A DNA stretch of 64,000 bases from an uncultured virus (IMG/VR IMGVR_UViG_3300047320_000091) (IMGVR_UViG_3300047320_000091); one strand, 5' to 3'; positions 8,564 to 49,340 are shown, counted from the stretch's first letter. Notes: generated by a model not told the origin, from the sequence alone. Made by a program: numbers and translations.

Positions 8564-8994
8564 GCCACGATGAACTCCGGGAAGAGCCGAGCCAGCTCAG
8601 CCTTAGCCCGCTCGACGACGCGCTGGGAGAAGTTGTCCGGGTGGCGCGGATCGGTGACGATGCCGTCCGTGACCTCGTACTCGCCGACCCCGGTGTGCGG
8701 ATTGTCCGCGTGCCAGAGACCGTAGAAGTTGCGGATGCCGCGGCCCGCGTGGATCAGGCAGCCGGCATGCTCCGGCGGGTTGAGCACGCCAGGCTTCAGG
8801 GTGTACGGGAACTTCCAGCTCCACGGATCGAGCCAGCGGTTCAGCGCGATCTGGTCATCGCTCACGCGCCTGACCACGTCGGCGACCATCCCGTCCTCGT
8901 CGAGGTAGGAGCCGAACCACTCCGGCATTTGCGGTTTCTCGTTCTTGCCGAGGCCGCTGATCAGGTTCGAAAGCTTCTTCAACAGTTCCATCAC
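8560..8994 (-). CDS. hypothetical protein (DUF6794-like)
   Basis: GRGIRNFYGLW...HPDNFS motif. Confidence 0.55.
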   Translation of the reverse strand: MMELLKKLSNLISGLGKNEKPQMPEWFGSYLDEDGMVADVVRRVSDDQIALNRWLDPWSWKFPYTLKPGVLNPPEHAGCLIHAGRGIRNFYGLWHADNPHTGVGEYEVTDGIVTDPRHPDNFSQRVVERAKAELARLFPEFIVA

Positions 8995-9488
8995 GCCACC
9001 TCTTCTTTCGGCCGCTCGTCGTTGTCGTTGGCGGCGTCCTTGTAATTCGATTGTTGCCGGGCTTCCTTCAGCAGCGCATCCAGATCGATACCCGGGATGA
9101 TGTGCGTCTGGATCGTTTCGAGCGCGGCGTCGAAGTAGGCTTTGAACTCGTCCTCGCCCATCGCGTCGTACGCGGTGGAGGAGGGCATCATGATGATCTC
9201 GCCAGCGGTGGTCATGACCGGGCGCACCACGCCATTGGCGAGCAGCAGCGTGTCGTGCAGTGCATCTTCGTGCGCGAACAGATCGGTGTTGTTGGCGACG
9301 ATGCGGATCAGCACCCGATAGAGGCGGTGCCTGGGGCCGCTACGAGGCTGTGCGAACTGAGCCCGCACAGGAACGTTCTCCGGGATCGCTTCAAGCATCT
9401 CCGCATCGTATCGAGCATGCGGGACCATGCGACCTTCGACCTTGCGGAGCATGATCCACTTGTTCTTCGATTTGTTGCTCGCGCTCAT
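8991..9488 (-). CDS. DUF1367/NinB-like recombination accessory protein
   Basis: PRSGPRHRLY...PSSTAYDAMGEDEFKAYFD; in recombination module. Confidence 0.65.
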   Translation of the reverse strand: MSASNKSKNKWIMLRKVEGRMVPHARYDAEMLEAIPENVPVRAQFAQPRSGPRHRLYRVLIRIVANNTDLFAHEDALHDTLLLANGVVRPVMTTAGEIIMMPSSTAYDAMGEDEFKAYFDAALETIQTHIIPGIDLDALLKEARQQSNYKDAANDNDERPKEEVA

Positions 9489-9511
9489 GTATCAGTTCTC
9501 TTCATGACGCC

Positions 9512-9772
9512 TCAGATCAGCGATCCCTGACGGGCACGCTGGTTGGTTGATCTCGGTTTGGGTTCTGATCTCGGTCTCTCCTCGCTGCCCCAGGACTTGA
9601 CCTTCACCCGGCAGGCCTCGACGAGCGTGTCGATCTGATCCTGGCTGAGGCCGTAGTCCTCGCGGTGGGCGCGTTCGTCCGCCCACCACTGCCGCAGGGA
9701 GGAGGCTGGCCCCTCGGCGATCGAAATCGCAAAGGTAGCCAGCTCCATGTAGGCCGCAGCCCTATCCGGCAT
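9512..9772 (-). CDS. hypothetical protein
   Basis: 86-aa ORF overlapping the end of the upstream gene. Confidence 0.55.
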   Translation of the reverse strand: MPDRAAAYMELATFAISIAEGPASSLRQWWADERAHREDYGLSQDQIDTLVEACRVKVKSWGSEERPRSEPKPRSTNQRARQGSLI

Positions 9773-10493
9773 GGGCCGCCTTCTTCAGCTCCTGCGACTT
9801 GTCGCTGAGCTTGCCCATCACATAGGCCTCGCCGTTCGAGGACAGGACTTTCATGTCCTTGATGAAGTCCTGGCTCGACGCGATTTCCATCGCTTCCTTG
9901 GTGCGGGTGATCTTCGCGATCTTGTCCGACCAGAAGGTCACGATCTTCTGACCTTCCTCCTTGGAAACGGTGGCCTCGCGAGCCGGAGCCTTGTCGTCGT
10001 TCGCCGGACGGCTATCCTGACGGATGTCGCGACGGTCATCGCGGCGGTCGTCGTTGCGGCTGTTACCCGACTCTTCCTTGAAATCGTCGGCTTCCTCGGA
10101 CGAGTAGGCGTCACCATGCAGATCGGCGATCTTCAGGATCACGCGATCCTTCGCCCGCTTCTCCGCCATGGCGTACGGATACGCCGCCATCTTGCCCTTG
10201 ACCTTGTAGTTGCCGCCGGGCTTGCCTTCGAGCGAGATCAACGCCTCGCCGATCGACCATTCGGTCTTGCCGTTGGCTTCACCCATGACGAGGATGACCG
10301 CCTCGTCACGCTCGGCGCGCAGGATCTCGGGCTTCGTCCACTTGATGCCGATCGCGGCACCGAGACGCTCGACGTCCTTGTGCTTGACGACAGGCGTACC
10401 CTGGACTTCCCAGATCGCGTCGCGGTCGATGTCGACCTTGTGCTTCTCGAAAACGTCGTAGATCTTGTCGAGCCTGGGATTGCTTCGTGCCAT
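9762..10493 (-). CDS. putative single-strand annealing protein
   Basis: YPYAMAEKRAKDRVILK...YSSEEADDF; directly downstream of the YqaJ exonuclease (Red-like pairing). Confidence 0.55.
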   Translation of the reverse strand: MARSNPRLDKIYDVFEKHKVDIDRDAIWEVQGTPVVKHKDVERLGAAIGIKWTKPEILRAERDEAVILVMGEANGKTEWSIGEALISLEGKPGGNYKVKGKMAAYPYAMAEKRAKDRVILKIADLHGDAYSSEEADDFKEESGNSRNDDRRDDRRDIRQDSRPANDDKAPAREATVSKEEGQKIVTFWSDKIAKITRTKEAMEIASSQDFIKDMKVLSSNGEAYVMGKLSDKSQELKKAAHAG

Positions 10494-10508
10494 GGTTCTC
10501 TCCTGTGA

Positions 10509-11468
10509 TTAAGCGGCGTCTGCCGCGGGTTCTGCGGGTTTCTCGTTGCTGTTCGCCGCCTTCCGGGAGCGTGTCGCTTTGGGTTTGGGCTCGGGCAACG
10601 GGCGGCCGGAGTCCTTGTCGGCCTGCTTGACGGCCTCCTTGTCGATGTTGATGAGCTTCTTCCCATCCTTCGAGTAGGAGATCGTCACGCCCTTGCCGGA
10701 GGCGATCTTGGCGTCGCCAGGCATCAGCGCCTTGATCGCCTTCTTCGCCTTCTCGTGCTCTTCAGCGACGGTCTTGGTCTCGACCATCTTCTGGGCGAGG
10801 TCGCACCAGGCGTTGTCCTGGCTCATGTCGGCGACGCGGATCTTCTCCAGCAGCGGGACCTCCGCCACAGGATTTCCGGGCGTGCGGCCCGTCTGGACGC
10901 AGTCCCAGAAGTCCTGCTCGGCCTGGAGCATCTTGGCCTGGTAGAAGATGTCGGCCGTGACCTCCATCGACACCCACTGGCCAGCGCCCGTGATGATCGA
11001 CAGGTACGAGACCGGCAGATCCATCACCATCATGTTGTGCTGGCACTGCGGGTAGTACTTGTCGAAGGCGGCTTGCTTGTCGAAGCCGAACGGGAACATG
11101 AACTTGAACTCGACCATCGCCTTGACGGGGCCTTCGAGCGTCTGACGCACGAGTCCATCGAGGGTGGCGTGAGCCTTGTCCCAATCCTTGTAGAAGACCT
11201 TGTCCTGCTCGTTGGTCACGACCATGCCGGTCTGGAACTCGAACCAGTCAGCGTTCAGGTGTTCGGTCACGTTGCCGAGCTGGACCAGCAGGATCTCGGA
11301 CATATCCTCCTGCTCCTGCTCGCCGCGCTTCTCGCGCCAGAGCTGCTCGATCGCTTGCTGGTTGCCGGACATGATGATCCGCGCGTCCGAACCGCCAAGA
11401 GACGTCATGCGGGCGGCACGGGCTTCATCGCTCATTCCGAGGTGGCGGGTACGTCGTAGAAACTGCAT
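10509..11468 (-). CDS. YqaJ/lambda-exonuclease family protein
   Basis: LGGSDA, LWREKRG, ATLDG...VEFK, YYPQCQHNM. Confidence 0.88.
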   Translation of the reverse strand: MQFLRRTRHLGMSDEARAARMTSLGGSDARIIMSGNQQAIEQLWREKRGEQEQEDMSEILLVQLGNVTEHLNADWFEFQTGMVVTNEQDKVFYKDWDKAHATLDGLVRQTLEGPVKAMVEFKFMFPFGFDKQAAFDKYYPQCQHNMMVMDLPVSYLSIITGAGQWVSMEVTADIFYQAKMLQAEQDFWDCVQTGRTPGNPVAEVPLLEKIRVADMSQDNAWCDLAQKMVETKTVAEEHEKAKKAIKALMPGDAKIASGKGVTISYSKDGKKLINIDKEAVKQADKDSGRPLPEPKPKATRSRKAANSNEKPAEPAADAA

Positions 11469-13339: not shown

Positions 13340-13920
13340 GAGAGCATATCCTTGAAGCTGATGCCGTCTGCCGGCACGATGCCGATGTCTTTCTTCAAGC
13401 CGGTCAGGATGAACCCGACCGTCCTCGTCTTGATCTCGGCGGTGTTCTGCCGATTGGGTTTGCGGGTCGGGCAGTAAAGCCGGTGGACCAGCTCCTGATC
13501 TCCGCCGCGGGCGAGGGCGATGGCCGCCTTGGTGAGACGCTCGGGGAGGCGAGCGACGTTGCACCAGCGCATCCACTCCAGGACGCCGAGAGCACGATCC
13601 ACGTCGTTCCGCTGGGGAGCGGTCTTCGTGCTGCCGTCGAAGGGCTTCATCGAGCTGAAGAGACGAAGGCGTTCGATCTCGATCAGTTCGGCCCGCGACA
13701 TGCCGATCATGTTCCAGCCGCCTGAGCGGGAGCCGGACGTGAGCCAGCGCCGCTCCTGGTCAGGTGTCTTGTCGATGACCTCGACGGACTCGACGAGAAG
13801 CTGCCAGATGACGTCGCTGTGCTTTGCCCGTTCACCCTTCAGAGCGAACGCCAGCTCTCCGCCATGGGAGAGCCAGCTGAGCGCCTGGGTGCGAGCCTCA
13901 AGCGGGGACGAGCTGGTCAT
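13336..13920 (-). CDS. hypothetical protein (DUF6362-like, possible regulator)
   Basis: APQRNDVDRALGVLEWMRW segment. Confidence 0.5.
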   Translation of the reverse strand: MTSSSPLEARTQALSWLSHGGELAFALKGERAKHSDVIWQLLVESVEVIDKTPDQERRWLTSGSRSGGWNMIGMSRAELIEIERLRLFSSMKPFDGSTKTAPQRNDVDRALGVLEWMRWCNVARLPERLTKAAIALARGGDQELVHRLYCPTRKPNRQNTAEIKTRTVGFILTGLKKDIGIVPADGISFKDMLS

Positions 13921-14251
13921 TCGCCACCGCTGCGTTGCCGTACATCTGACGGCGGCGCGTTGCCCGGTACTCGTACTCGCCATAGCCGAGGCGCTTCTGC
14001 GTGAGCAGGATCTGGCCTTCGTCCGCGTCCTTGCGGATGCGGTCAGCGATCACGTTGAGCTGGGCGATGTTCATGCGCTCGATGGCGCGCAGGACATCGT
14101 GCTCCGGGATCTCCTTCTGGCGATCACGCTGAAGGTGACCGGTCCAGTAGACCAGCACGTCGCCGGCAGCCGCCTGCTTGAGCCAGTCGTAATAGTCGGA
14201 CAGAGCGCCCGGGGAGATGTCGAGGATGGTGGTCTCGGACGACGACATCAC
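13898..14251 (-). CDS. hypothetical protein
   Basis: 117-aa coupled ORF. Confidence 0.6.
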   Translation of the reverse strand: MMSSSETTILDISPGALSDYYDWLKQAAAGDVLVYWTGHLQRDRQKEIPEHDVLRAIERMNIAQLNVIADRIRKDADEGQILLTQKRLGYGEYEYRATRRRQMYGNAAVANDQLVPA

Positions 14252-17637: not shown

Positions 17638-18443
17638 CAGATCGCCATCCCGGGGCGACCCGGTCTCGTGCGCTCCGGAGCACGCTCGGTTTCCCAACGC
17701 TCCTGATTGACCCAGACGGCGCCGGCCGCGATGTACTTCTCGTTCTTCGCGTCCTCCTTGACCGCAGCATTCATGCGGTCGGCGTAGAAGCGGAGACCGG
17801 CCATCAGGTCGATGAACTCGACCTCATCGTCGTCGTGGACCTTGTCCAGCTTGGTCAGCGCAGCCTTTTTGCTGTCGCCTCGCTTCTTCGGGTAGAGATC
17901 CCAGAACTGCTTCCGGTAGTCCTCAGGCCACGGAGCGGTCTTCCGCTTCCGGTTAGCTTTGGGTTCTCTTGATGGGTTCAGTGTGGGTTCATCTGATAGG
18001 TTAGGCGGCACGTCTTGCCGCTGGTCACCGGCACCAGTTGCCTCACCCCCCGGCATCTCTTGCCGCTGGTCACCGGCATCCTGTGCCGCACCCTCCGGCA
18101 TCTCTTGCCGCGGCACGTCTTGCCGCTGGTTGTCGTTGGCGGCCTTGCCCTTCGCGCGGGCCTTCGGCGGCACGACGTCGCCGGGGTCTTCCATGTTCAG
18201 GAAGATCAGGTCGGTGGTGTCGCGGCGCTTCTGGCGGCGGATCAGGCCCATCTCTTCCAGATCGGCCAGTGCGTATCGGACGGAGCGCGGGCACGCCTCG
18301 ACCTCGTCGGCGATCCGCTGCTGCGATGGCCAGCATGCGCCATCAGCATCGTTGGCCCGGTTGGCGATCGACATCAGCACTGCCTTGCGGAGCGTGCTGC
18401 CAGTCTTGATCTTTCTCGCCCAGGCTTGTGCGTCGAAGCTCAT
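17637..18443 (-). CDS. phage replication initiator (N-terminal winged HTH)
   Basis: KAVLMSIANRAND...CWPSQQRIADE...RSVRYALADLEEMGLI; C-terminal FWDLYPKK; internal iterons. Confidence 0.85.
   Translation of the reverse strand: MSFDAQAWARKIKTGSTLRKAVLMSIANRANDADGACWPSQQRIADEVEACPRSVRYALADLEEMGLIRRQKRRDTTDLIFLNMEDPGDVVPPKARAKGKAANDNQRQDVPRQEMPEGAAQDAGDQRQEMPGGEATGAGDQRQDVPPNLSDEPTLNPSREPKANRKRKTAPWPEDYRKQFWDLYPKKRGDSKKAALTKLDKVHDDDEVEFIDLMAGLRFYADRMNAAVKEDAKNEKYIAAGAVWVNQERWETERAPERTRPGRPGMAI
17957..18125. repeat. iteron array/replication origin inside the initiator gene
   Basis: six CGGCA-N5-TGCC(G/T) palindromes at 18006, 18029, 18051, 18074, 18096 and 18111, followed on the minus strand by a GAACC-repeat element. 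Confidence 0.8.
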
Positions 18444-22776: not shown

Positions 22777-23135
22777 GCGATCAACATCAGTTCACGGGGT
22801 TTGGTCAGAGCAAGCTCCCGTTCGGCAGCCCGTAGCTGCCGGCAGAGGATTTCGATTTGCTTGGTCTTGCGGGCTTTGAAGTCCCGGATGGCGCCTGCCT
22901 CAGACTCCGAGTACTTCTTCTTGAATGCGGTGAGCAGCTGAAACTCACCGGTACACAGCCATGCGCCCTTGGGCGTCCGGCGCTCGATCTCCCACCACCA
23001 CATCTCAAGACGAGGGTCGGTGACGCCGTACTCATCGCGATCGGCGTCGATGATGTAGGAGTAGCTCTTGGCGTCGCACCGCCAGAGGACGTCTTCCCCC
23101 TCTGGCGGCTTGCCTCGCGGATAGTGCAGCTTCAC
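22773..23135 (-). CDS. hypothetical protein
   Basis: coupled ORF with RRTPKGAWL motif. Confidence 0.55.
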   Translation of the reverse strand: MKLHYPRGKPPEGEDVLWRCDAKSYSYIIDADRDEYGVTDPRLEMWWWEIERRTPKGAWLCTGEFQLLTAFKKKYSESEAGAIRDFKARKTKQIEILCRQLRAAERELALTKPRELMLIA

Positions 23136-24745
23136 GCAACGCCGGGCAGTGCGAGCTGCCCCTTCTTGTTGTCGTTGGCTGCAACGGCCTTCTGGTTGTC
23201 GTTAGCCGGCGGCATCTTCACCTTCGGCAACGGCGGATAGAGATCGATCAACTCCTCCATGGCGCGGGTGGCCGCCACGTATTGCAGATTGAACTCCTGC
23301 TCCTTCTCCCAGGGCATGGTGGCGTACTTCGACGGGCAGGTGTTCAGCCGGTCGAGCCAGTAGACGCGCTTCCACTCGCGGCCCTTCGACCGGTGGATGG
23401 TGCAGAGGGTCAGGATACCCTTCACGTCATCTGCGAAGATGTTGTCGATGTAGGCGGTGACGGATGAGATCGAGTCCTGCTTCTCCTCACGGCACGCATC
23501 CATGATGACCTTCAGGGTCTCGAACTTGTCCTCGGCCTCCTGCACCTTCGACATCTTCTTCTTCGGCAGCCAGCGCTCCTTCTCCTTCTCCAGCCAGTCC
23601 TCCAGCTTCTCCTCCAGCTCTGGGATGGTGCTGATCGACTTCCAGCGGGTAGCCAGCTTCTTGAGGCCGTTGCCGATGTCCCGGCCTTCGATGCGGCAAG
23701 GGATCTTGTCGCGGATCATCGCGAATGCGGCAGTGACCAGCGGGCGGGTGTTGCGGCAAAGGATTGCCGCATCGCCGTTGAGCCGGCTACGATCCTGGAT
23801 CAGGTTCTCGAACGTCTCGGTGCTGATCTTGCCGTCTGGAGCGGTTTCGTGCGCTTCGATGTGGCTGACCCACGTCTTGGCGAACTTCACCACGTTCTTC
23901 GGGCAACGGTACGTGACCGTCAGTGGCATCTCCTTGGCGCCGAACTCCGCCTTGATGATGTCTAGGCTATCGTTATCGGCCCCCGTGAAGCCGAAGATGG
24001 CCTGGTGGGGGTCGCCGACAGCGAACACGCGGCCGGTGTGGGGCTTCATCAGCGCTCGCACCAGCAGCCGGCGCACCGTGTTGGTGTCCTGCGCCTCGTC
24101 GATCCAGACGTTGTCGAACTGCCAGAACCTGATCTTGTAGAGTAGGGGCAGGTAGATCATGTCGTTGAAGTCGATGACCTCCGGGTTCTTGTTCGACTCC
24201 TTCAGCGTCTCGATCGCCAGGTCGATGATGTCCGACGCCTTCTTCTGCAGCGGCTCTTCATCGAAGATGTCGTAGTGCTCGGCGATGTCCTCCCAGATCG
24301 AGTGGTCCTCGATATGGCCCTGTCCCTCGATGCCGAGGCCGCTCTGCTTGGCGAGGCCGACTAGCTGGCAGACGACAGCGACATGCGGTACGAGCGACGG
24401 CTCGATCTTGCTGTCCTCCACCCACTGGGCGGTGATGCGGCCGACCTTCTCGTCGTCGACGCGAACCTTCGGGAACGTCTTGCGGTAGTTTCGCAGAGCG
24501 ATGGCGTGACAGGTCGAGGACTCTGCCTTCTTCCAGTCGATGCCGAGCTTCTCCAGCTTGCCCTTCATTTCCTTGGCGATCTTGGCGCCAAAGGACAGGA
24601 TGATGCTGCTGCCGAGCATCTTCTCGACGGTATGGACTATGGTCGTGGACTTGCCGGCGCCGGCCACCGCGATCACGAGCAGGGAGCTGGAGCCGTTCCA
24701 GGCCTCGTGCTGGACCGCCGCTTGCTGCGGGGAGGGGACGTACAT
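23132..24745 (-). CDS. UvrD/Rep-like superfamily 1 helicase
   Basis: AVAGAGKST, IDEAQD, VGDPHQAIFGF, TYRCP, TIHRSKGREW, YVAATRA. Confidence 0.93.
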   Translation of the reverse strand: MYVPSPQQAAVQHEAWNGSSSLLVIAVAGAGKSTTIVHTVEKMLGSSIILSFGAKIAKEMKGKLEKLGIDWKKAESSTCHAIALRNYRKTFPKVRVDDEKVGRITAQWVEDSKIEPSLVPHVAVVCQLVGLAKQSGLGIEGQGHIEDHSIWEDIAEHYDIFDEEPLQKKASDIIDLAIETLKESNKNPEVIDFNDMIYLPLLYKIRFWQFDNVWIDEAQDTNTVRRLLVRALMKPHTGRVFAVGDPHQAIFGFTGADNDSLDIIKAEFGAKEMPLTVTYRCPKNVVKFAKTWVSHIEAHETAPDGKISTETFENLIQDRSRLNGDAAILCRNTRPLVTAAFAMIRDKIPCRIEGRDIGNGLKKLATRWKSISTIPELEEKLEDWLEKEKERWLPKKKMSKVQEAEDKFETLKVIMDACREEKQDSISSVTAYIDNIFADDVKGILTLCTIHRSKGREWKRVYWLDRLNTCPSKYATMPWEKEQEFNLQYVAATRAMEELIDLYPPLPKVKMPPANDNQKAVAANDNKKGQLALPGVA

Positions 24746-26010: not shown

Positions 26011-28245
26011 TCAGGCTGCTTCGTCGAGGACGTCAAGGTCTTGATCGACCTCCTCCTCGACGATCTGGTTGTTGTCGTTCAGCCCCAGCTCAACCCGTGC
26101 CGCAGCCGCCCGCTGCTGCAGGAGCTGCTGCTCTGCATGCAGGAGGTCGCAGTAGGTCTTGAGCTGAAGTTCGGTGGTGCGGGCGTCCGTACGGTTGCCA
26201 TAGGAGTAGTACGGGTTGGGCTCGATGATGAGCTTCAACAGCGAGTACTTGGAGCACAGCTCGCGATAGCGGCGCTCCATCGCATGGATCGGACACTGGA
26301 CTTCCGGCGTTTCAACGTGAACACCGAGCTGCGCCAAGGCGGAATGCGCCTTGTCGGTATCGGTCTCGACGTTAGACTGGGCCTTCAGCGTGTTGCCGAG
26401 AGTGGTCAGCTCGGCCTTGAACGACAGAAGGTCTTCCGGAGCGTTCGCGAACGTCGCCGATTGCATGCCAAAGATGCCACGCAAGGCGGTGTCCAGATCG
26501 TTGAAGCTTTTCTTGTGCAGACCGGTGAAGGTGCTGACGTCGATCTTCGCTTGCAGGTCGGTGATCAGGTCGTCGCCGAACAGCGTCCAGTTCTCGCCAA
26601 GGGCGGCGTGATCCTCGTTCTGCACCACGATCATCGTTCCGGCCTCGACCAGGCCCAGGTCGTAGCCGGCCGAGATGGCCTGCTTGAGCGAGCTGGACGA
26701 GACACCGCTGCGATCCTGAGAGACCCGGAAGAAGTCCGAGCCGCCACGCCGCCGGCTGCTGAACCGGTTGTCCTGGCGGATGATGTAGAGCCCGCCCTCG
26801 GCGAGATCGACATCCTCCTGACTCATCGCGATCCCGCCACCCTCCAGAACGAGAAGGGTTTTGCGACGGCGCACGGTCTTGCCCCGCTTGACGCGAGCCG
26901 AGGCCGGCACCTTGAAGGTATCGAGCTCAATGATCTCGGGATTGCCGAGATCGGCCAGAACCTGCTCGCGGAAGGCGCGCTTGCAGCGGACCCACAGCAC
27001 CTTCTCGCCGATCAGCCCCGCCAGCTGGAAGCGGGAGAACGAGTAGCTGGGGTTGTGCTCGATGACGATCTTGGCATCGCGAACCGTGCGGCAACGCACG
27101 GCGCTATCCTCGAATTTGTCGAACTGCGACCAGCCATCGTCCAGCATCATGGTCTTGGCGTTGCGCTTCGGCACGTTGGTGCCGAGGTACAGGCCAGCCC
27201 ACTTCACGACGTTGCGCAGGCTGTCGACGCGGCTGACGCCCAGGTTCTCGGTCGCATCCTCGAACAGCTCGACGGCTTCGAGCAGGTCTTGCGCCTGGTC
27301 GACGATGCCCTGGAGCTGGGTGATGAAGTTGCTCTCGTACTCCTGGACGAGGCGGGTCAGAGTCGCCTTGGTGTTATCGTCGTACGCCAACTCTTCGCGG
27401 GATAGCGTGACCTTCAGCGAGCCGATCGGCGCGTCGAACAGCACGTTGTCATTATAGTCGAGGAAGCCCGACGTTTTGATCTGGCGCAGATCGAACGGAT
27501 ACATCACGCAGCCCATGCGGACGCGCGGGCCAGAGAACGGGATTGTGTTCGGCTTGTAGCGGGTCCAGTTGTCGCCCTGGCTGAGGACGACCGGGTCCTT
27601 CCAGTTCAGCGACGGCGTGACCTTCGGCCGTGGCTCGAACGACCAGAGGATCTGGCGGGCACGGTCATGGAACTCGGCGATGTCCTCGCGGCGCACCGGG
27701 AAGGAAACCTCCAGGCCCGTATCCGCATCGGACGGCGCCTCGATCAGCAGGCGCATGGTCGGCGCACCGCTCTGCGAGAGCGACAAGACGTAGGTCCGCA
27801 TCATGCCGCCGTGGTACGACGTCACGGTGTAGGAGCCCGAGCCATTGTCCGAGATCAGGTAGGCGTACGGACTCTTCGAACCCAAGCCCCAGCCACCAAC
27901 CTGGTTGTTGCTATCCCGCTTCGTCGAAGCGTAGAGGCGGGCGTAGACGTTCTTCATGTCTTCCGGCGACATGCCGGGACCGAAGTCACGGAACGTGATC
28001 GTCGGATTGAGCGGGGTCGGCAGCGTGATCTGCGGGATCTTGTCCTCGGGGATGTTGTCCCCGTACTTGATCCGGGAGCCGTCCCACATGTTCGTGGTCA
28101 GCTCGCGCATCGGGTAGCCGATCTTGTCCTTCGCAAGACCGGAGATCTGGGCGTAGAACGCCACGGCGTTCGCTTCGAACGAAATGGCGACTTCATCCTG
28201 CACTCCCGAGGCGACGTCGACGTGCTCTTGCAATCCGAGTTTCAT
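26011..28245 (-). CDS. rIIA-like protein (N-terminal GHKL/Hsp90-like ATPase)
   Basis: RELTTNMWD, FRDFGPGMS, STKRDSNNQVGGWGLGSKSPYAY, TGLEVSFPV, SREEL. Confidence 0.85.
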   Translation of the reverse strand: MKLGLQEHVDVASGVQDEVAISFEANAVAFYAQISGLAKDKIGYPMRELTTNMWDGSRIKYGDNIPEDKIPQITLPTPLNPTITFRDFGPGMSPEDMKNVYARLYASTKRDSNNQVGGWGLGSKSPYAYLISDNGSGSYTVTSYHGGMMRTYVLSLSQSGAPTMRLLIEAPSDADTGLEVSFPVRREDIAEFHDRARQILWSFEPRPKVTPSLNWKDPVVLSQGDNWTRYKPNTIPFSGPRVRMGCVMYPFDLRQIKTSGFLDYNDNVLFDAPIGSLKVTLSREELAYDDNTKATLTRLVQEYESNFITQLQGIVDQAQDLLEAVELFEDATENLGVSRVDSLRNVVKWAGLYLGTNVPKRNAKTMMLDDGWSQFDKFEDSAVRCRTVRDAKIVIEHNPSYSFSRFQLAGLIGEKVLWVRCKRAFREQVLADLGNPEIIELDTFKVPASARVKRGKTVRRRKTLLVLEGGGIAMSQEDVDLAEGGLYIIRQDNRFSSRRRGGSDFFRVSQDRSGVSSSSLKQAISAGYDLGLVEAGTMIVVQNEDHAALGENWTLFGDDLITDLQAKIDVSTFTGLHKKSFNDLDTALRGIFGMQSATFANAPEDLLSFKAELTTLGNTLKAQSNVETDTDKAHSALAQLGVHVETPEVQCPIHAMERRYRELCSKYSLLKLIIEPNPYYSYGNRTDARTTELQLKTYCDLLHAEQQLLQQRAAAARVELGLNDNNQIVEEEVDQDLDVLDEAA

Positions 28246-38480: not shown

Positions 38481-38678
38481 TCAGGCTGCCTTCTCGTTGT
38501 CGTTGTTCGCCGCCTGGACCGCATCGAGGCGGAAGGCGAGCATGTGGATGTGCAGGGTCATCGGCTCCTTCCAGGCAAAGCCGGCCCGATCCCGATGGGT
38601 GTGGGTGAAGTTGATCTCGTCGACGATCAGCGTTCCGAATGGCAGCTTTTTGCCGGGTGGCAGACCAATTGCGAACAT
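38481..38678 (-). CDS. hypothetical protein
   Basis: GAGG RBS; ends [11 protein letters not shown]. Confidence 0.55.
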
Positions 38679-42712: not shown

Positions 42713-43201
42713 TTACTCGGCGCAGCTGAACGGCTGCAGGTGGGTGCGCTCTTCGCTGACGTTGTAGATGTGCTCGCGGTGTGTGTACCCGCTGAGGAAG
42801 ACGCAGTCGGACAGCTCACCCGAATAGCATCCGGACCCACCGCCGTCGTTCGCCATTCGGACGTGGTAGGTGCCGGCTGTGGTGTCGATGTTGAAGCCGT
42901 AGGTGTACTTAGTGCCACGCATTTCGGCTGGCTCGATCTTGCGGTAGCCCGTGATCAGCGCGCCTTCGATGCCTGCCGGCTTGTCGATGTCGCTCAACAC
43001 GAACCACGACGTGTCGCAGCACTGCGACATGGCATCGAACCGAAGCACGATGTCGCCTTCGACGTAGATCATGATCGTGCCCTCGGTCTCATAGAGAGAG
43101 CGGATGGGCTTCAGCAGAAGCGACGATCGGATCAGCTGCAGTTCCCTGCGCTCGTCCTCGTCCAGCTGCTTTCGGTATGCCGCCCAGTCAAAGTCCGCCA
43201 T
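42713..43201 (-). CDS. hypothetical protein
   Basis: GGAG RBS; CCDTSW...GCYSG. Confidence 0.6.
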   Translation of the reverse strand: MADFDWAAYRKQLDEDERRELQLIRSSLLLKPIRSLYETEGTIMIYVEGDIVLRFDAMSQCCDTSWFVLSDIDKPAGIEGALITGYRKIEPAEMRGTKYTYGFNIDTTAGTYHVRMANDGGGSGCYSGELSDCVFLSGYTHREHIYNVSEERTHLQPFSCAE

Positions 43202-43336
43202 CTCTCGTCTCCAGAATTGCACCAGCGGGTTGGGTTTGCCTGCCGCTGGTCAGGCTGTGCGTCCGGTCGCTCGCGGCTTCACCGGTCCAAAAACTCAGTC
43301 ACTCTCGTCGGGGGTTAACAGTGCAGGCTGCTTACT

Positions 43337-43477
43337 TCATGACCGTTCTCCATCGTCGTTGCGATAGCTCGGGACCTTCGCGGTGCGCTTCTTGTTCGGC
43401 ACGACGCGAGGCTTGTACTTGGGCGTCCGCAGATCGCGGGCGATCGGCGAGCGCCGGGATGACTTGCGCTTCTTCAT
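43337..43477 (-). CDS. small basic protein, ArfA-like
   Basis: SPIARDLRTPKYKPRVVPNKK...SY pattern. Confidence 0.45.
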   Translation of the reverse strand: MKKRKSSRRSPIARDLRTPKYKPRVVPNKKRTAKVPSYRNDDGERS

Positions 43478-43479
43478 GG

Positions 43480-43746
43480 CTACCAGTTGATGTCGGACGA
43501 CAGCAGCTCGCGCTTCGTCTCCCGCCATCGGTCGTGGATCTGTTTTGCCTGGATGGCGATGTCCTTGGCCTCGAACCGGTTCACGAAGCGGCCGGTCGAG
43601 GTGAGGAAGCCGTCCACATCGCCCCGGGTGGAGCGTTGCGGATCGGGATCGGAGAGCCAGCAGCGCAGCTGATAGTGCGACTTGAAGTTCTGGCTGAAGG
43701 TTTCGCCATTGCGCTGGATGGCGACTGCGGTCAGGCGCTCAGTCAT
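43480..43746 (-). CDS. hypothetical protein
   Basis: GFLTSTGRFVNRFEAKDIA...ELLSSDINW phage motif. Confidence 0.6.
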   Translation of the reverse strand: MTERLTAVAIQRNGETFSQNFKSHYQLRCWLSDPDPQRSTRGDVDGFLTSTGRFVNRFEAKDIAIQAKQIHDRWRETKRELLSSDINW

Positions 43747-43940
43747 CGGCCGATCCTCTGGTAGGTGCTGCGGCCAACGTTCTCGCCATGGGCGATAACT
43801 TCGATCGGGCCGATCGTCACCGAGATGTCCCGGCCGTCCTCGGCCCAGCGGTTGGCCCGCCAGTAGAGGTCGGACTCGCACCACAGGCGTTCGCTAACCC
43901 GAACGCCGGCAAGGAGCTGCGCATGTGCGTCGGACATCAC
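43743..43940 (-). CDS. hypothetical protein
   Basis: coupled ORF. Confidence 0.45.
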   Translation of the reverse strand: MMSDAHAQLLAGVRVSERLWCESDLYWRANRWAEDGRDISVTIGPIEVIAHGENVGRSTYQRIGR

Positions 43941-44176
43941 AGCCTCCAGTGCTGCATGCGGGCGCGGTTATCCAGCGCCTGCTCGTTGTCGTTGGCCGCC
44001 TTCGGCTTGGCCGGGGACAGCTCGTCCTCCTTGCGCAGCCAGAGGCGCCGCTCGGCATCGCGGACCACGTATTCGCCGCCGTCGAGGACTTCGATGACCT
44101 GCCCGGCGAAGGCCGGCTGATGCTTGACCCGGGTAGATTGAACCCAGTCGCCCTTGCTGAACTTCGGCTTAGCCAT
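43937..44176 (-). CDS. small SH3-like hypothetical protein
   Basis: KFSKGDWVQ...AGQVIEV; contains KAANDN. Confidence 0.5.
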   Translation of the reverse strand: MAKPKFSKGDWVQSTRVKHQPAFAGQVIEVLDGGEYVVRDAERRLWLRKEDELSPAKPKAANDNEQALDNRARMQHWRL

Positions 44177-44357
44177 TGGGGTGCCCCGTGAACTTGCAGA
44201 TACCGGCGCGCAGCGCCGCGTCGTCGGCACCGGCAGCGATCAGACCCTCGGCGTGCTTGTAGATACGCGGGATCTCCATCATGGGGATCAGGATGCCGGT
44301 GACGGCACGCTGAATGCGTGCGGCGTCGATAGCCTGCTGCTTTTTGGTCCGTTTCAT
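44169..44357 (-). CDS. hypothetical protein
   Basis: coupled ORF. Confidence 0.45.
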   Translation of the reverse strand: MKRTKKQQAIDAARIQRAVTGILIPMMEIPRIYKHAEGLIAAGADDAALRAGICKFTGHPNG

Positions 44358-44722
44358 GTCAGCTCCTTGAAGGTCTTCAGCTGTTCGATCAGCTCGACGG
44401 ACAGACGTGCCTCGTCGGCGTGCCCCAGGTCCGCGTCGCTGTCCTGCATCGCCGTCAGGGCGGAGATGATGCGGTCCAGATTGGCCCGCAGGACCATGTC
44501 GCGATCGGCCGCTGTGACGAACGTCGGGCGGATCCAATACTTGGTGTCATCCCAGCCGTAGGGCTTCTCGATGATCTCGTTGACCACCACCTCGGGCTTG
44601 TAGTGGCTGTTCCGGGACAGCTCGCTCTGCACAAGGTTGGACCAGTCGGAAGGCTGGTGTCCCCACCCGGGCACTCGGTCAAGGTCCGCAGTGAAGGTGA
44701 AGTTGATGGCTACTCGCTTCAT
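44354..44722 (-). CDS. hypothetical protein
   Basis: coupled ORF. Confidence 0.5.
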   Translation of the reverse strand: MKRVAINFTFTADLDRVPGWGHQPSDWSNLVQSELSRNSHYKPEVVVNEIIEKPYGWDDTKYWIRPTFVTAADRDMVLRANLDRIISALTAMQDSDADLGHADEARLSVELIEQLKTFKELT

Positions 44723-45000
44723 GGCGTGGCCCTCCAATGGCCGTTGAACATGTCGGGCGGGTCCTCGCCGCGGCAGCGCGGCTGGTCGATCTTGCCGGCG
44801 TCCCACAGGTCCATTGCGATCTTGTGGGCTCGCTCCGGATCAGCTCGCCAATAGGTGCGGCAGTAGCTGTGCTTTAAGCCGGTGTGGAACATGTCGCGAT
44901 CGGTGAAGAACGTGCCGGTGATGATCTTCTCGACCTTCTCCAGCTCGACGCGGCCTTCGATGACGTCCTTGACGCAGAAGGACAGACTCAGTCCGATCAC
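44719..45000 (-). CDS. hypothetical protein
   Basis: IGLSLSFCVKDVIEG...GKIDQPR. Confidence 0.55.
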   Translation of the reverse strand: MIGLSLSFCVKDVIEGRVELEKVEKIITGTFFTDRDMFHTGLKHSYCRTYWRADPERAHKIAMDLWDAGKIDQPRCRGEDPPDMFNGHWRATP

Positions 45001-45338
45001 AGGACCCTCCACATCGCGAATGCGGCACGGTTCGCGCCGGGGTGCTTGTTGAAGTCGCGGGCGGCAGCGCGGGCGATCCGAAGGGAGCGCATGCGGAATG
45101 TCTCGATGACGCCGTCACGAGTGACGACGAACAGGGTGGGGATGCGACGGGGAACGCAGCGCATCAGTGCCTCACTTCCGGCTGCATGCTGGCGGCGAGC
45201 GTCAGCAGATCTGCGATCAGGTCGTGAAGCTGATCTCGCGAGAGGCTGGAGGTCGGGCGGAAGGTGATGCCGACCGTGGAGTCGCCGTACCCGGGGGTGG
45301 TCCGGTGGACGGTCGCGTCGAAGAACTTGGTCTGCATC

Positions 45339-45803
45339 TCAGACCTCCACCACATCCCAGCCGGACGGGGCGGTGCCGGTCATGTCGAGGCCATCGATCT
45401 GCTCGACCGCCTTGTCGTCCAGGAGGAATGACTCTGCGATATCCCGCAGGCCCCGAGCGACGTTCGGGTAGTTCCAGTCCTTCTGGAGGATGCGGCGGCT
45501 GTCGTAGCTGTCGTGGACACCTTGAAGCCGAGCCAGCAGCCTCTCATGCTCGCCGAACCATCCCGGCAGGACATCGCCGTAGATTCTAACGATGTTCCAG
45601 ACAGCGTTGCCGCCCGACATGTTGTCCATGCCCGGATGATACTTGTCGTCGGGGATGAAGTAGCCGGCAGCGCAACAGCGGTCGCCCGCTCTGTAGCGGC
45701 AGGCCGAGCGGTCGATCGCCGGGCCGGACTGGGTGGCGAAGAACGTGCAGGAAGCGTCGAACACTTCCTGAGCGGTGGGTCTATGGTCGAAAACGTGGGG
45801 CAT
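45339..45803 (-). CDS. hypothetical protein
   Basis: CRYR...CCAAGYFIPD...LQGVHD phage motif. Confidence 0.6.
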   Translation of the reverse strand: MPHVFDHRPTAQEVFDASCTFFATQSGPAIDRSACRYRAGDRCCAAGYFIPDDKYHPGMDNMSGGNAVWNIVRIYGDVLPGWFGEHERLLARLQGVHDSYDSRRILQKDWNYPNVARGLRDIAESFLLDDKAVEQIDGLDMTGTAPSGWDVVEV

Positions 45804-45806
45804 GGG

Positions 45807-46148
45807 TCAGTTCCTTGGCAGGGCGGTGGTGACGTCGAAGATTTGGTCGAGGTAGGCGGCGTCGCGATCGAACAGGACTTGCCGCCGACCCTTGCGCACC
45901 TCAGCGGCGTGGAAGGACATCAGGACGAAGCCGCGGTCCTTCAGCTCTTGCCGCTCATCGGGGTTGAACCACTGCTGGAAGTGACGCACGGACTCGAAGC
46001 CGCAATTCCAGCCGCCGACGCGGCCGATGCCGTCGTCGATCGGGGGCGGATGGTCAGGATCGCAATGACGAAAGCCGAGGTCGCCAATTGCGTGCTCGCC
46101 GATGTAGGGGCCGCCGCCTTCCGGGTGTTCAACTCTGTAGACCAGCAT
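45807..46148 (-). CDS. hypothetical protein
   Basis: MLVYRVEH...GPY...CGFES...WF...RQVLF; GGAG RBS. Confidence 0.6.
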   Translation of the reverse strand: MLVYRVEHPEGGGPYIGEHAIGDLGFRHCDPDHPPPIDDGIGRVGGWNCGFESVRHFQQWFNPDERQELKDRGFVLMSFHAAEVRKGRRQVLFDRDAAYLDQIFDVTTALPRN

Positions 46149-46232
46149 GGTCGCTCCGTTTGCGCTGGGGTGTTTGCATTCAAACAAACGGGAAAGCAAG
46201 TGCAAATTTGCTATCCCGACTACGGGGTCGTC

Positions 46233-46472
46233 TCAGCCCTTGAGGCGGACGGCGTATTCCTGGTGTGTGAAGCCCTTGCGGTGGGCCAGGCGGAGGATCT
46301 CGTTCATGATGCGCCGGACGGACTTTTCGTCTCCGCCGTCCACCGTCTCCATGATGTCGATCACCTCGACCCCGTCATGGACGACCAGCCGGACATTGCC
46401 GGCGGGCATCTTGATCAGCTTCAGGTCCAGCGTTTCGAACATTTCCGTAGGCGCGTCAGTGGGTTGCGTCAT
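46233..46472 (-). CDS. hypothetical protein
   Basis: 79-aa ORF. Confidence 0.5.
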   Translation of the reverse strand: MTQPTDAPTEMFETLDLKLIKMPAGNVRLVVHDGVEVIDIMETVDGGDEKSVRRIMNEILRLAHRKGFTHQEYAVRLKG

Positions 46473-47083
46473 AATTGAGCCACCATTCCATGGGATAAGG
46501 GATGCTGTTCCGAGGTGCAGATTCAGCGCCTTGGAAATTCGAAAATATTCCCACCGAAAATGGGCCGCGGCGGAATTAATGGCCGCCCCGGGGTATTTTC
46601 GAAGGCCGCCTCCAGCTCCTCGATCGTGGCCGCCACGGTAGGGGCAGCGACGTCTCTCTGAGAGAGAACACAGGCCGCCTCAGCCAGTATTGCCGACTGG
46701 ACGAGGGTGATGCCGGACCTGCCCGAATAGGCACGGTACAGGGTGGCGAGACGAGCACGCATCGGTTTCTCCGGTGAAGTGAGAAGGGGCGGAAAGCCCT
46801 GCAGAACAGGCACAATCCAGACGACGACGAACGAGAACGGGGCCGCCAATCGCGGGCCGCCGGCACACACCAATCCCAAGCCAGTCAAGACCTGACAGGG
46901 AGAGCATAGGGAGAGGGGACAGGTCTCAGGGGAGAGACGACAGGGAGCGGACTAGACGCTACCGGTGACCTCGGGAGAGGGGCTACAGGCCGAATTAGAG
47001 CCAAAGGCCAGCAGGTCCGTCGCGTCGACCTTACCCTCGCCATAAAAGCGCATTTGCATTTGCGCCTGTTTTGAGCTCTCGCA

Positions 47084-47173
47084 ACACTACATGTAGTGCT
47101 CTGAGAGGCCAAAATGACCCCAAACAGGGGGTGGAGACCCCGATTTTGAGCCTCCACCCACTAGATCTTGTAA
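47084..47173. promoter_or_regulatory. two NrdR-box-like palindromes
   Basis: ACACTACATGTAGTGC (47084-47099) and CCACTAGATCTTGTAA (47158-47173) fit the core of acaCwAtATaTwGtgt. Confidence 0.5.
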
Positions 47174-47174
47174 A

Positions 47175-47393
47175 TCATGTCGCTGCGATCTGTCGCCAGA
47201 GCGGTGCGAGGACGATATCGGTGTCCTCGAACAACCGGTCGACTTGGATCTTGAGTGCTTGGCCCCGCCAGACCGTCTTCTCGATCCGGTTGATGTCGAT
47301 CGTGACCCATGTCCGGTGGGAGTGGGCATGGAGGGAGGCGACTTCGGCAGCGTCGCGGATCATGTCCATGCCGGTACGTCTGCCATCAGCCAT
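47175..47393 (-). CDS. hypothetical protein
   Basis: GGAGG RBS. Confidence 0.5.
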   Translation of the reverse strand: MADGRRTGMDMIRDAAEVASLHAHSHRTWVTIDINRIEKTVWRGQALKIQVDRLFEDTDIVLAPLWRQIAAT

Positions 47394-47489
47394 GGAAGCC
47401 TCCTGCTACCCAGCCGACGTGGGCCAGGATGATGAAGATGCAGATGCACACGGGCATCGGGACGGTTCGGTTGAGGAAGTTCATGGCAC

Positions 47490-47834
47490 TCACGCATACT
47501 GGGCTACGGGGCGGAGCCCCTTGGGGGTGGAGACGACACCGTCCTTGATGGTCACCTCGTGGGCGTTCCAGACGTAGGACGGTGCGTTGAGGGAGGCGTG
47601 GCGCTCAGCGAACAGCCGATCGCCGAATGGCTCGCAGGTGGGGCGACCGGTGCGGAACGACTGGACGATGAACCGCGGAATGGCCGGATCGCGGGGCTTG
47701 GGCGCTGTGACCGTGGGTCTGGACGCCGGCTTTTCCCGAGGGTCGGGAAAAACTCGAGACGATGTCGCGTCCGCCTTCTGGACTGCAGCGGTGAGACACG
47801 AGCGCAGGAAGTCGTTCTGACGAATGGTCAGCAT
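47490..47834 (-). CDS. hypothetical protein
   Basis: ORF MLTIRQNDF... Confidence 0.45.
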   Translation of the reverse strand: MLTIRQNDFLRSCLTAAVQKADATSSRVFPDPREKPASRPTVTAPKPRDPAIPRFIVQSFRTGRPTCEPFGDRLFAERHASLNAPSYVWNAHEVTIKDGVVSTPKGLRPVAQYA

Positions 47835-47868
47835 GTGGCTACCCGGTGAATGAGGGGTGGGGGTGCGT

Positions 47869-48228
47869 TCAGCGCTGCGAGAAGAGCCGCTTGCGCCGGG
47901 CGTAGCTGGGCACCTTGGGCTCGAAGCGAGGCCCGAGGAACGGGAGCGTCCGCAGGTGGGGCTCCTTCTTCTCCCAGACGACATCAGCCCATGTCTGCCG
48001 GGCCAGTTCGATGCGATGCATGCCGGCCATATCAGCTGGGCTAAGCTCGCTCTCGCCAACCATCAGCCGGGTCTGTGCCAAGGTCATCTTGGCGTCATCG
48101 GGATCAACCGGGGGCGGGGGGATCACGTCTTTCCCGACACTCAGGAAATTCTGAGCCAGCCACTCGCTGTCAGACAGGGGGCGGGGGGTCGCAACCGTGT
48201 TGGCGTATCGCCGAATTTTCCGCTTCAT
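47869..48228 (-). CDS. hypothetical protein
   Basis: GGAG RBS, MKRKIRRY... Confidence 0.5.
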   Translation of the reverse strand: MKRKIRRYANTVATPRPLSDSEWLAQNFLSVGKDVIPPPPVDPDDAKMTLAQTRLMVGESELSPADMAGMHRIELARQTWADVVWEKKEPHLRTLPFLGPRFEPKVPSYARRKRLFSQR

Positions 48229-48250
48229 GCTCGCAGCTCCGATGGGGCAC

Positions 48251-48282
48251 AAAAAAAGGCCCCCGGCGGGGAGCCGGGAACC
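48251..48282 (-). terminator. intrinsic terminator
   Basis: minus strand GGTTCCCGGC-TCCCC-GCCGGGGGCC followed by T7. Confidence 0.8.
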
Positions 48283-48311
48283 TCGTTTTCGATGGGGGAA
48301 GTGGGGCGGGG

Positions 48312-49340
48312 TTAAGCCGCCTTGCGCTTCCGGGACTTCCGCGCGGGGGCGGGGGCGGCTTCCGTGGTTTCCTCCGCCTTCTCCGGAGCGGGGGGCGGGA
48401 GAAGCAGGACAACGTTCCCCGTGGTTTCGGTCGCGGGGGCGGTTGCCATGGTCGCGCCAACCTTGCCGTTGATGTAGGCTTGCAAGGTCATGAGAGCGTC
48501 GACCGAAAGCGTGTCAACGGCTGCCATGATCGCCGCCAGCTTCTCCGTTTCCGTCAATTCGGAAGCCGGTTCCGCGCTACCGGCGGACTCGGGGGCGGTT
48601 GCGGTTTCGGGCTTCTCCGCTCCGGCCTTCTCCGCCTTGGCGGACTTCTCCGAGTCGCGTGCCATGTCATGCCATTCGGCAAGGCGGGATTGCATGACGC
48701 CCCATTGGGCCGAAAGCGCCTCGCCCACCTTGGCGTTCCACATGACTTCCGCCGAGTCGATGGAAGCCGCCCGGGCGCATTCCACAATGACGGAACCGTG
48801 GTTAATCCGCATGAACGAGGCGAGTCGCGTGCCATACGTCTTGAGCGTCGAAAGCGAGTCAATGAGCTTGACGTTGACCGGCTTGCCGTTGCGTACCTCT
48901 CCGGTATGCTTCAGCTTGACGTATTCCGCCGCAAGCTTGTTCCGCTCCGACTCGGCCGCCTTCAGCGCGTCACCGGAAAGCCGGTCAAGCTTGCCGTTGA
49001 GCGCGGCAATCGCTCCGGCCTTCTCTTCCGTTCCCCGATAGATCATGCGACCGGCTTTCGCGATCGGAACCAAAATGTCCCGGGTAAAAATCCAGCCATC
49101 CTTTTGCGGATCATAATTCTGATCCGTCAACAGCGCGCGGATTTGTTCGCCGCAAAGGTTCAGCGCCAGCATGGTGACGGCGGAGTGAGTCGACGTTTCA
49201 GCCGCGCCAAGGGATGCAATCGCCCGGTCCGCGCTACGGGACTGGATCGTATCCGCAAACTTTTCGGTCGCGGACTGCAACACGTTGGTTTCGGCAATCT
49301 CCGCCGCGTTGGGCTGGCGGGTATCGGTCGCGGTAGCCAT
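48312..49340 (-). CDS. first gene of the leftward arm, Ala/Glu/Thr-rich hypothetical protein
   Basis: 342-aa ORF with its own terminator; codon choice looks atypical (GAA, GCG, ACG, CAA); ends RKRKAA. Confidence 0.7.
   Translation of the reverse strand: MATATDTRQPNAAEIAETNVLQSATEKFADTIQSRSADRAIASLGAAETSTHSAVTMLALNLCGEQIRALLTDQNYDPQKDGWIFTRDILVPIAKAGRMIYRGTEEKAGAIAALNGKLDRLSGDALKAAESERNKLAAEYVKLKHTGEVRNGKPVNVKLIDSLSTLKTYGTRLASFMRINHGSVIVECARAASIDSAEVMWNAKVGEALSAQWGVMQSRLAEWHDMARDSEKSAKAEKAGAEKPETATAPESAGSAEPASELTETEKLAAIMAAVDTLSVDALMTLQAYINGKVGATMATAPATETTGNVVLLLPPPAPEKAEETTEAAPAPARKSRKRKAA

Follow-up and report, generated by a model that had tools for sequence, protein, structure and literature searches.

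Why do several unrelated proteins of one phage end in a peptide that resembles the tag bacteria add to the products of stalled ribosomes? This question is raised by a 64,000-nucleotide stretch of DNA from an uncultured virus (IMG/VR IMGVR_UViG_3300047320_000091), which is called the window below. A preliminary description of the window had noted that a number of its proteins carry a motif like Ala-Ala-Asn-Asp-Asn (AANDN) shortly before a C-terminus that ends in Ala, and had proposed that these are genome-encoded mimics of the ssrA tag specified by transfer-messenger RNA (tmRNA). On the basis of sequence comparisons, we cautiously favor a narrower form of this idea, in which the tails that have an Asn-Asp-Asn (NDN) core are encoded two-part ssrA-tag mimics that would be read by the host adaptor SspB and the protease ClpXP. 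The proteins that would carry such a tail are a UvrD-type helicase, a RecE/YqaJ-type exonuclease, a NinB-like recombination mediator, a 65-amino-acid (aa) protein, rIIA, and probably an RNA ligase.

Enrichment of NDN-containing tails

The window is a 62% GC phage sequence in which a codon-usage gene caller found 105 genes, 104 with their stop codon inside the window, for a total of 17,631 aa. With our own gene calls, all C-termini quoted in the preliminary description are present as written, including the two motif copies in the helicase tail. The internal copies KAANDNQ, RPANDDK, and KAANDNE are also present, as are the ends that have only Ala-Ala (AA) or Val-Ala (VA) and no NDN (LLAA, AHAA, RAAA, LEAA, SQAA, IAVA, LAAA, SSAA, and RKAA). 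The exact sequence AANDN occurs in four window proteins, with xANDN, AANSN, or AANNDN in others, and five of the tails with the motif end in AA or VA.

Among named phages, the closest relative is Bradyrhizobium phage BDU-MI-1 (KY940711, 121 kb), which is syntenic with the window and has a helicase that is 62% identical. Closer relatives, whose helicases are 78-80% identical to that of the window, are present in two Bradyrhizobium genomes, and these two genomes were used as stand-ins for the host. The host background was a 660-kb sample of a Bradyrhizobium chromosome (G003:C2:1-660000) with 576 genes, as defined by the same gene caller. One of these closer relatives, G003:C21, served for comparison alongside BDU-MI-1.

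ANDN is enriched in the window (5 seen versus 0.15 expected from composition; Poisson p = 6e-7), and the host sample is at expectation (1 seen versus 1.03 expected). NDN is likewise abundant, with 11 copies compared to 1.48 expected. In an unbiased ranking of k-mers, NDN comes first among 5,774 tripeptides observed in the window, and ANDN is second among 15,432 tetrapeptides, behind RDDR. That top tetrapeptide is accounted for by an RDDRG-type repeat region in the single-stranded DNA-binding protein SSB, which also has a canonical DDDIPF end. When the ranking is confined to the last 20 residues of each protein, NDN is first in the window, third in G003:C21, and fourth in BDU-MI-1, and is unremarkable in the host.

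The placement of the motif is equally distinctive. Within the last 25 residues, N[DS]N is absent from all 576 host genes, whereas this core together with an Ala end is found in 5 of 104 window proteins (p = 8e-5). The same class of tail is present in both phage relatives (window 5/104, BDU-MI-1 5/197, and G003:C21 4/187; p = 1.6e-5 versus host).

Not all phages of alphaproteobacteria share this feature. Brevundimonas phage vB_BsubS-Delta is an unrelated alphaproteobacterial phage that also has 62% GC, and none of its 108 proteins has an NDN tail (NDN overall: 2 seen versus 2.2 expected), although 20 of the 108 end in Ala and 4 in AA. Because this phage shows no such pattern, the gene caller is not its source. 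The same result contradicts a general occurrence among alphaproteobacterial phages and marks the feature as specific to this lineage.

Conservation and spacing among homologs

Four families, those of the NinB-like mediator, exonuclease, helicase, and 65-aa protein, retain an NDN or NSN core as well as an AA or VA end in the window, BDU-MI-1, and G003:C21, and the residues between core and end differ among the three genomes. The rIIA protein keeps both elements in two of the three, since the BDU-MI-1 protein has NDN (AVANDNEEDVEDTELLDEAA) and the G003:C21 relative does not. Orthologs of the 65-aa protein end in RVANDNQKAA (BDU-MI-1) and PADNDNERVA (G003:C21).

Larger homolog sets were compared for three of these families, with distance counted as the number of residues from the first Asn of NDN to the C-terminus. 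The sets comprised 63 matches for the NinB-like mediator, the best 120 of 2,761 matches for the helicase, and the best 120 of 268 matches for the exonuclease. Among the NinB-like proteins, 26 of 63 have NDN, and in every one of these 26 the motif is 11-13 residues from the end and the last residue is Ala. Other members have a short form without this segment (e.g., ending in SNWKEAA), and the NDN cassette in this family is therefore an insertion or a deletion.

The helicase set divides by relatedness. An N[DSEQ]N core with an AA or VA end is present in 39 of the 41 closest matches (at least 62% identity) and in none of the 72 more distant ones listed. Among the helicase tails with the motif, the distance is 10-14 residues in 41 of 43 and the end is Ala in all 43. 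Two motif copies are present in the helicases of the window and of P0080, P0089, P0100, and P0105. In the exonuclease set, 64 proteins have N[DSEQT]N in their last 30 residues, 61 of them among the first 66 matches listed and 3 among the last 54. Of these 64 tails, 63 end in Ala and 58 have a distance of 10-13 residues. Judged by their sequences, three unrelated families (helicase, exonuclease, and NinB-like) thus converge on one kind of tail, in which x-[A/V]-N-[D/S]-N precedes an AA or VA end by 10-13 residues, and they do so across dozens of relatives among Bradyrhizobium phages.

Tail structure was assessed in one protein, the NinB-like mediator. Its residues 153-165 have pLDDT values below 50 and follow a confidently folded domain, and the tail is predicted to be disordered. 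At the DNA level, the Asp of the motif is encoded by GAT in 2 of 13 codons, and the Ser of the exonuclease motif is encoded by AGC in the window and by TCC in BDU-MI-1. This variation in codons implies that selection acts on the protein.

Resemblance to the host tmRNA tag

The tmRNA tag of the host genus, as found with ARAGORN in the two Bradyrhizobium genomes that carry relatives of the window phage, is ANDNFAPVAQAA. There are 11 residues from NDN to the end of this tag. An Ala borne by tmRNA itself precedes the encoded portion, which brings the tag to 13 residues in full. The phage tails are like the host tag in three respects, namely the NDN core, the AA or VA end, and the length from NDN to the end. 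Tag-like spacing is absent from the 65-aa family, in which the distance is 7 residues, and from rIIA, in which it is longer (22 and 17 residues). The exonuclease tail of P0334 is as long as the full tag, and in a comparison by eye 8 of its 13 residues agree with those of the tag.

The DNA identity between the tails and the tag frame of tmRNA ends after 12 nucleotides (nt), and the likeness must therefore have arisen at the protein level. Capture of tmRNA DNA by the phage was considered and rejected, given that just these 12 nt (GCCAACGACAAC) are held in common. The tails also differ from a tag that is added by tmRNA at a stalled ribosome: they are in frame within phage open reading frames that end at TGA or TAA, and there is no tmRNA gene within the window.

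The adaptor that would read such tails is present in the host genus. Each Bradyrhizobium genome has a single SspB match, which is chromosomal and does not reside on the phage contig. The host protein (PF04386, E = 3.6e-48) is 180 aa in length, ends in VVRLDRFRKK, and is related to the solved SspB structures from Caulobacter and Agrobacterium (2QAS/2QAZ/2NYS). Its gene lies about 300 bp downstream of a two-piece, alpha-type tmRNA gene (G003:C2:643924-647406), and the arrangement is the same in the second genome. No phage-encoded SspB, ClpX, or ClpP was detected by Pfam among the 100 window proteins scanned. In a study of Caulobacter, the tag is given as AANDNFAEEFAVAA, and a genetically fused ssrA tag causes very rapid proteolysis that is slowed by deletion of sspB (PMC9393093).

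A proposed link to SspB and ClpXP

If the tails are indeed two-part mimics, then the first part, x-[A/V]-N-[D/S]-N, would correspond to the start of the tag, which is presumably the stretch read by SspB. The second part would be the free AA or VA C-terminus that follows about 11-12 residues later, which is the stretch that ClpX would read. By analogy with the fused Caulobacter tag, host SspB might then tether the tailed proteins to ClpXP and thereby cause their degradation. Under such an arrangement, the replication and recombination enzymes would be short-lived, and their levels would depend on the protease capacity of the host. This would suit a temperate phage because such enzymes are potentially harmful if they linger. 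BDU-MI-1 encodes an integrase, and relatives of the window phage are found inside bacterial assemblies; no integrase was detected by Pfam among the window proteins.

A more ambitious proposal can be put forward only tentatively. Perhaps temperate phages of Bradyrhizobium, as a whole lineage, have independently equipped many unrelated early proteins with both parts of the ribosome-rescue tag, adaptor site and protease site, at the native spacing, and have thereby wired their replication and recombination module to SspB-ClpXP. The amounts of these enzymes, and perhaps the outcome of the choice between lysis and lysogeny, might then track the load of stalled ribosomes in the host.

Several observations weigh against proteolytic tag mimicry. 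The spacers of the phage tails are charged or polar (DERPKEE, QKAAAEK), unlike the FAPVAQ of the tag. Variation is seen both in the middle residue of the core (D, S, T, E, or Q) and in the one that precedes NDN (A, V, L, I, P, or D). The NDN-to-end distance is 7 in the 65-aa family and 17-22 in rIIA. The motif copies inside the annealing protein, the initiator, and the protein encoded at 43937-44176 lack an AA end. Moreover, in the NinB-like family the final codons also serve as the Shine-Dalgarno sequence for the gene that follows. Finally, an AA end alone cannot mark a protein for destruction, because 7.8% of the 576 host genes have such an end.

Possible other readers and a possible decoy function

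It is conceivable, although we consider it unlikely, that the tail is a short linear motif for some other phage or host hub protein that gathers replication and recombination enzymes, and that its likeness to ssrA is coincidental. C-terminal tails are well known as recruitment handles, and the window SSB itself ends in DDDIPF. In addition, the motif-bearing proteins of known function (the helicase, exonuclease, NinB-like mediator, annealing protein, initiator, and RNA ligase) all act on DNA or RNA, and the tail spacer is unlike that of the tag. The set of proteins that carry the motif also differs among relatives; for example, the short-form NinB-like protein P0037 and the NDN-tailed helicase P0076 are both from Bradyrhizobium sp. 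SZCCHNS3053. However, a hub of this kind would require a chance match to the host tag in core sequence, end, and length alike. No candidate for the hub was found, and none of the 100 scanned window proteins matches SspB or a known peptide-binding adaptor by Pfam.

Another idea, which strikes us as rather improbable, is that the tails serve as decoys. They might bind SspB and/or ClpX early in infection, occupy the adaptor, and slow the degradation by ClpXP of ssrA-tagged and other substrates, including phage proteins, rather than shorten the lives of the proteins that carry them. The sequence evidence for two-part mimicry applies equally to a decoy, and several helicases have two copies of the motif. 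Polar, charged spacers and internal copies that have no AA end would suit binding without efficient engagement by ClpX. Yet a decoy needs no free AA end at a fixed distance, and it is precisely this combination that is conserved. Replication and recombination enzymes are also not obviously abundant enough to titrate an adaptor, and a dedicated small inhibitor would be a simpler solution.

Alanine ends and gene coupling

The preliminary description had also regarded AA and VA ends without NDN as potential degrons. Although the NDN tails do match the host tag in core, end, and length, as a selected feature of the proteins, these other ends are close to the host background and are weak evidence of a degron. 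In the window, 25 of 104 C-termini are Ala, including 11 AA and 5 VA. In the host sample, 117 of 576 genes (20%) end in Ala, 45 (7.8%) in AA, and 9 (1.6%) in VA, and these values are stable across gene-score thresholds. The excess of Ala ends over the host sample is not significant for the window as a whole. A fifth of ordinary Bradyrhizobium proteins thus end in Ala, which calls for caution before an AA end by itself is equated with a degron.

An excess does emerge within part of the window, namely the replication and recombination module. At positions 1-38700, 23 of 52 proteins end in Ala (15 of 52 in AA or VA; p = 2e-4 versus host), for a boundary that was set after inspection of the data. 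Elsewhere, Ala ends are found on 2 of 34 proteins at 38701-53400 and on none of 18 in the plus-strand arm. BDU-MI-1 has 8 Ala ends among 71 proteins of its late block and 40 among its 126 other proteins.

Gene coupling explains little of this pattern. The preliminary description had cautioned that coupling through a ribosome-binding site and an ATGA overlap can itself produce ends such as EAA and EVA. As a general cause of Ala ends this can be rejected, since only 3 of the 25 Ala ends in the window are in 4-nt ATGA or GTGA overlaps. Under a wider definition of coupling (next start at -30 to +15 nt), coupled and uncoupled genes have similar rates of Ala ends in the window (13 of 49 versus 12 of 55); 28% of coupled host genes have Ala ends. 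Coupling is a partial cause for the NinB-like gene, in which the Shine-Dalgarno sequence of the following gene (GAAGAGGTGGCGTGATG) overlaps the terminal E-V-A or E-A-A. The E-V-A is encoded by GAAGAGGTGGCG directly before TGATG, and this ending is present also in family members without NDN. In the host, no tripeptide is more enriched than EAA within the last 20 residues. Host Ala ends could stem from termination context, from overlap with ribosome-binding sites, or from another cause.

These findings bear on the very improbable notion that the tails have no dedicated function and arise instead from composition, from C-termini rich in Ala like those of the host, and from overlap of the last codons with the ribosome-binding site and start codon of the following gene. 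Such an origin is probably correct for most AA and VA ends without NDN, given the host frequencies and the prominence of EAA noted above, and it would also fit the E-V-A that the NinB-like gene encodes just before TGATG. It leaves NDN unexplained, because the motif is at least 8 codons upstream of the stop. Nor does it fit the absence of NDN tails from the host sample and the Brevundimonas phage, or the fixed distance in three families. Ala ends are, furthermore, conserved between orthologs: of 51 pairs between the window and BDU-MI-1, 11 have an Ala end on both members (p = 2e-6), out of 13 such ends on the window side and 15 on the BDU-MI-1 side, and this agreement extends to pairs with otherwise dissimilar tails. 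As an explanation for the NDN tails, a by-product is largely refuted.

Hardly credible is the remaining alternative that AACGACAAC is a promoter element, operator, or translational control site that happens to be read as Asn-Asp-Asn: all 10 copies are on the coding (minus) strand and several are 20-40 nt upstream of the next start, but AAC and GAC are the preferred codons anyway (87% and 73%), internal copies are distant from any start, flanking DNA is unrelated, and the peptide is kept where the DNA is not (AACGATAAC; AATTCCAAC versus AACAGCAAC; NEN and NTN forms), a codon variation that argues against a motif at the DNA level and led to its rejection.

Relation to known systems

The closest known counterpart of the tails is the native alphaproteobacterial ssrA tag. 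Both have an (A)ANDN start, which is found at five window sites, and an AA end, and the distance from NDN to the end is 11 residues in the tag and mostly 10-13 in the phage tails. In contrast, the native tag is added by tmRNA, whereas the phage tails are encoded by genes that have ordinary stop codons. The spacer of the tag is hydrophobic and that of the phage tails is charged, the middle Asp of the phage core can be Ser, Thr, or Glu, and some phage copies are internal or duplicated.

Genome-encoded, ssrA-like degrons at the C-termini of phage proteins have been described for the integrase (Int) and repressor (Rep) of actinobacteriophages that use integration-dependent immunity, namely mycobacteriophage BPs and its relatives (PMC4557955, PMC9635641). 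In the portions of these reports that concern them, such tags are said to set protein stability, and in this they offer a parallel to the window tails, which are likewise ssrA-like, genome-encoded, and located on phage proteins. Unlike the window tails, the actinobacteriophage tags as described there are on Int and Rep, involve only the extreme C-terminus, and are lost upon integration, which takes place inside the repressor gene. The same portions describe no adaptor-binding element, whereas the window tails copy the adaptor-binding start of the tag at a tag-like spacing. Integration-dependent immunity involves a tagged integrase and repressor and an attP site inside the repressor gene, whereas the tails of the window are on the helicase, the exonuclease, the NinB-like protein, rIIA, and small proteins.

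Host ClpX also governs the level or activity of some phage replication and transposition proteins, and Table 1 of PMC8138137 includes two classic natural substrates of this kind, lambda O and MuA. Lambda O has an N-terminal signal and MuA a C-terminal RRKKAI, and these have no ssrA resemblance and make no use of its adaptor site. The C-motif-1 substrates of ClpX are cellular proteins with ssrA-like AA ends (PMC12723719). They share with the window tails a free, nonpolar AA or VA C-terminus as the element recognized by ClpX, but what they have in common, as far as that source sets it out, is the last residues, with no NDN at a fixed distance.

In our literature searches, no report came up of phage proteins in which the adaptor-binding start of the tag is reproduced at its native spacing, or of a replication and recombination module with many such tails; the hits were the actinobacteriophage Int and Rep tags and engineered tags. 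Thus, ssrA-like tags on phage proteins are already known, and a mimic of the adaptor site on many proteins appears to be new. Here the whole tag, with its adaptor site, is copied on enzymes of the replication and recombination module, and dozens of relatives have kept the copy. Should SspB and ClpXP indeed read these tails, they would be a natural example of viral adaptor-site mimicry, and the rule N-D/S-N plus 7-9 residues plus an AA end would predict which proteins of alphaproteobacterial phages are unstable. The natural variants might also reveal which tag positions an alpha-type SspB needs, and the arrangement would suggest a route by which translation stress in the host could enter phage development.

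Motif copies and gene context

The coordinates of the tails, the internal motif copies, and other features are collected in Table 1. The true start of the exonuclease is probably the ATG at 11468, which yields a protein of 319 aa, rather than the start at 11372 chosen by the gene caller, because its homologs are 316-320 aa long. The RNA ligase tail is tag-like but ends in Ala-Gly; it is outside the region covered by the preliminary description and was missed there. No ortholog of the ligase was found in BDU-MI-1 or G003:C21. The presence of this ligase together with RtcB and an HD hydrolase suggests a tRNA-repair set.

Some of the motif copies first proposed as mimics do not survive comparison with relatives. 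The VANDQ tail of the gene beginning at 13898 is not conserved, as its orthologs end in RPNEQLVPA and TPHDLVLA and keep only the terminal L-V-x-A; it was rejected as a member. The internal KAANDNQ of the initiator is absent from the BDU-MI-1 and G003:C21 orthologs, and the KAANDNE of the 79-aa protein is likewise absent from both relatives, including its G003:C21 ortholog. Relatives of the candidate single-strand annealing protein (SSAP) have GANDNQ (G003:C21, residue 163 of 261) and PSNDNQ (BDU-MI-1, residue 184 of 258) at the matching place. The SSAP candidate and both orthologs have this internal N-D-[DN] in a corresponding low-complexity stretch, and all three have Ala-x-Ala/Asn-Gly ends (AHAG, ANAG, and AANG) rather than AA. 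In BDU-MI-1, the motif is instead N-terminal in two proteins (32785-33198, MTDVANDNF; 37099-37308, MSAAANDNE), with no counterpart seen in the window.

Table 1. Positions of tails, motif copies, and other features in the window
Feature	Position	Strand	Sequence or motif	Assignment or remark
RNA ligase, C-terminal tail	398..430 (gene 395-1621)	-	AINDNYLLAEAG	Pfam RNA_ligase; PHA02142 OB domain
NinB/Orf-like (DUF1367-like) recombination mediator	gene 8991-9488	-	ends in KDAANDNDERPKEEVA, then stop	
NinB-like C-terminal tail	8994..9035	-	AANDNDERPKEEVA	tail by sequence; family PHROG 319 NinB/Orf, E = 2.5e-19
Annealing protein (SSAP) candidate, internal ANDD	9993..10004 (gene 9762-10493)	-	RPANDDK	residue 164 of 243
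RecE/YqaJ-type exonuclease	gene 10509-11468 (caller start 11372)	-	ends in KAANSNEKPAEPAADAA, then stop	
Exonuclease C-terminal tail	10512..10559	-	AANSNEKPAEPAADAA	Pfam YqaJ; PHROG 434
VANDQ tail	13901..13933 (gene 13898-14248)	-	AAVANDQLVPA	probably no true member
SSB	15191-15805			
O-like replication initiator, internal motif	18129..18140 (gene 17637-18443)	-	KAANDNQ	residue 102 of 268; PHROG 270/391 replication initiation
UvrD-type helicase	gene 23132-24745	-	ends in PPANDNQKAVAANDNKKGQLALPGVA, then stop	Pfam UvrD
Helicase C-terminal tail	23135..23209	-	PANDNQKAVAANDNKKGQLALPGVA	two motif copies
rIIA, C-terminal tail	26014..26082 (gene 26011-28245)	-	LNDNNQIVEEEVDQDLDVLDEAA	PHROG 612 RIIA
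RtcB	36422-37765			
HD hydrolase	37904-38479			
65-aa protein, C-terminal tail	38484..38513 (gene 38481-38678)	-		
79-aa protein, motif	43985..43996 (gene 43937-44176)	-	KAANDNE	residue 61, 19 before the end; protein ends in WRL
tRNA-Gly (TCC)	55997-56071			plus-strand arm
tRNA-Phe (GAA)	63395-63469			plus-strand arm
tRNA-Trp (CCA)	63680-63752			plus-strand arm

Minus-strand genes extend from 395 to about 53300, and the plus-strand arm begins at 53900. The products named by Pfam and PHROGs include SSB, a DnaB-type helicase, the O-like initiator, and the UvrD-type helicase, as well as class II ribonucleotide reductase, TerC, a TerB-like protein, RNA ligase, RtcB, and the HD hydrolase. Other genes named in this way encode the RecE/YqaJ exonuclease, the NinB/Orf-like mediator, rIIA, a member of a peptidase family, and an HNH endonuclease. 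The relative G003:C21 fills an entire 124,582-base contig of a Bradyrhizobium assembly, a length near the 121 kb of BDU-MI-1, and it may be a complete phage genome that is excised or extrachromosomal.

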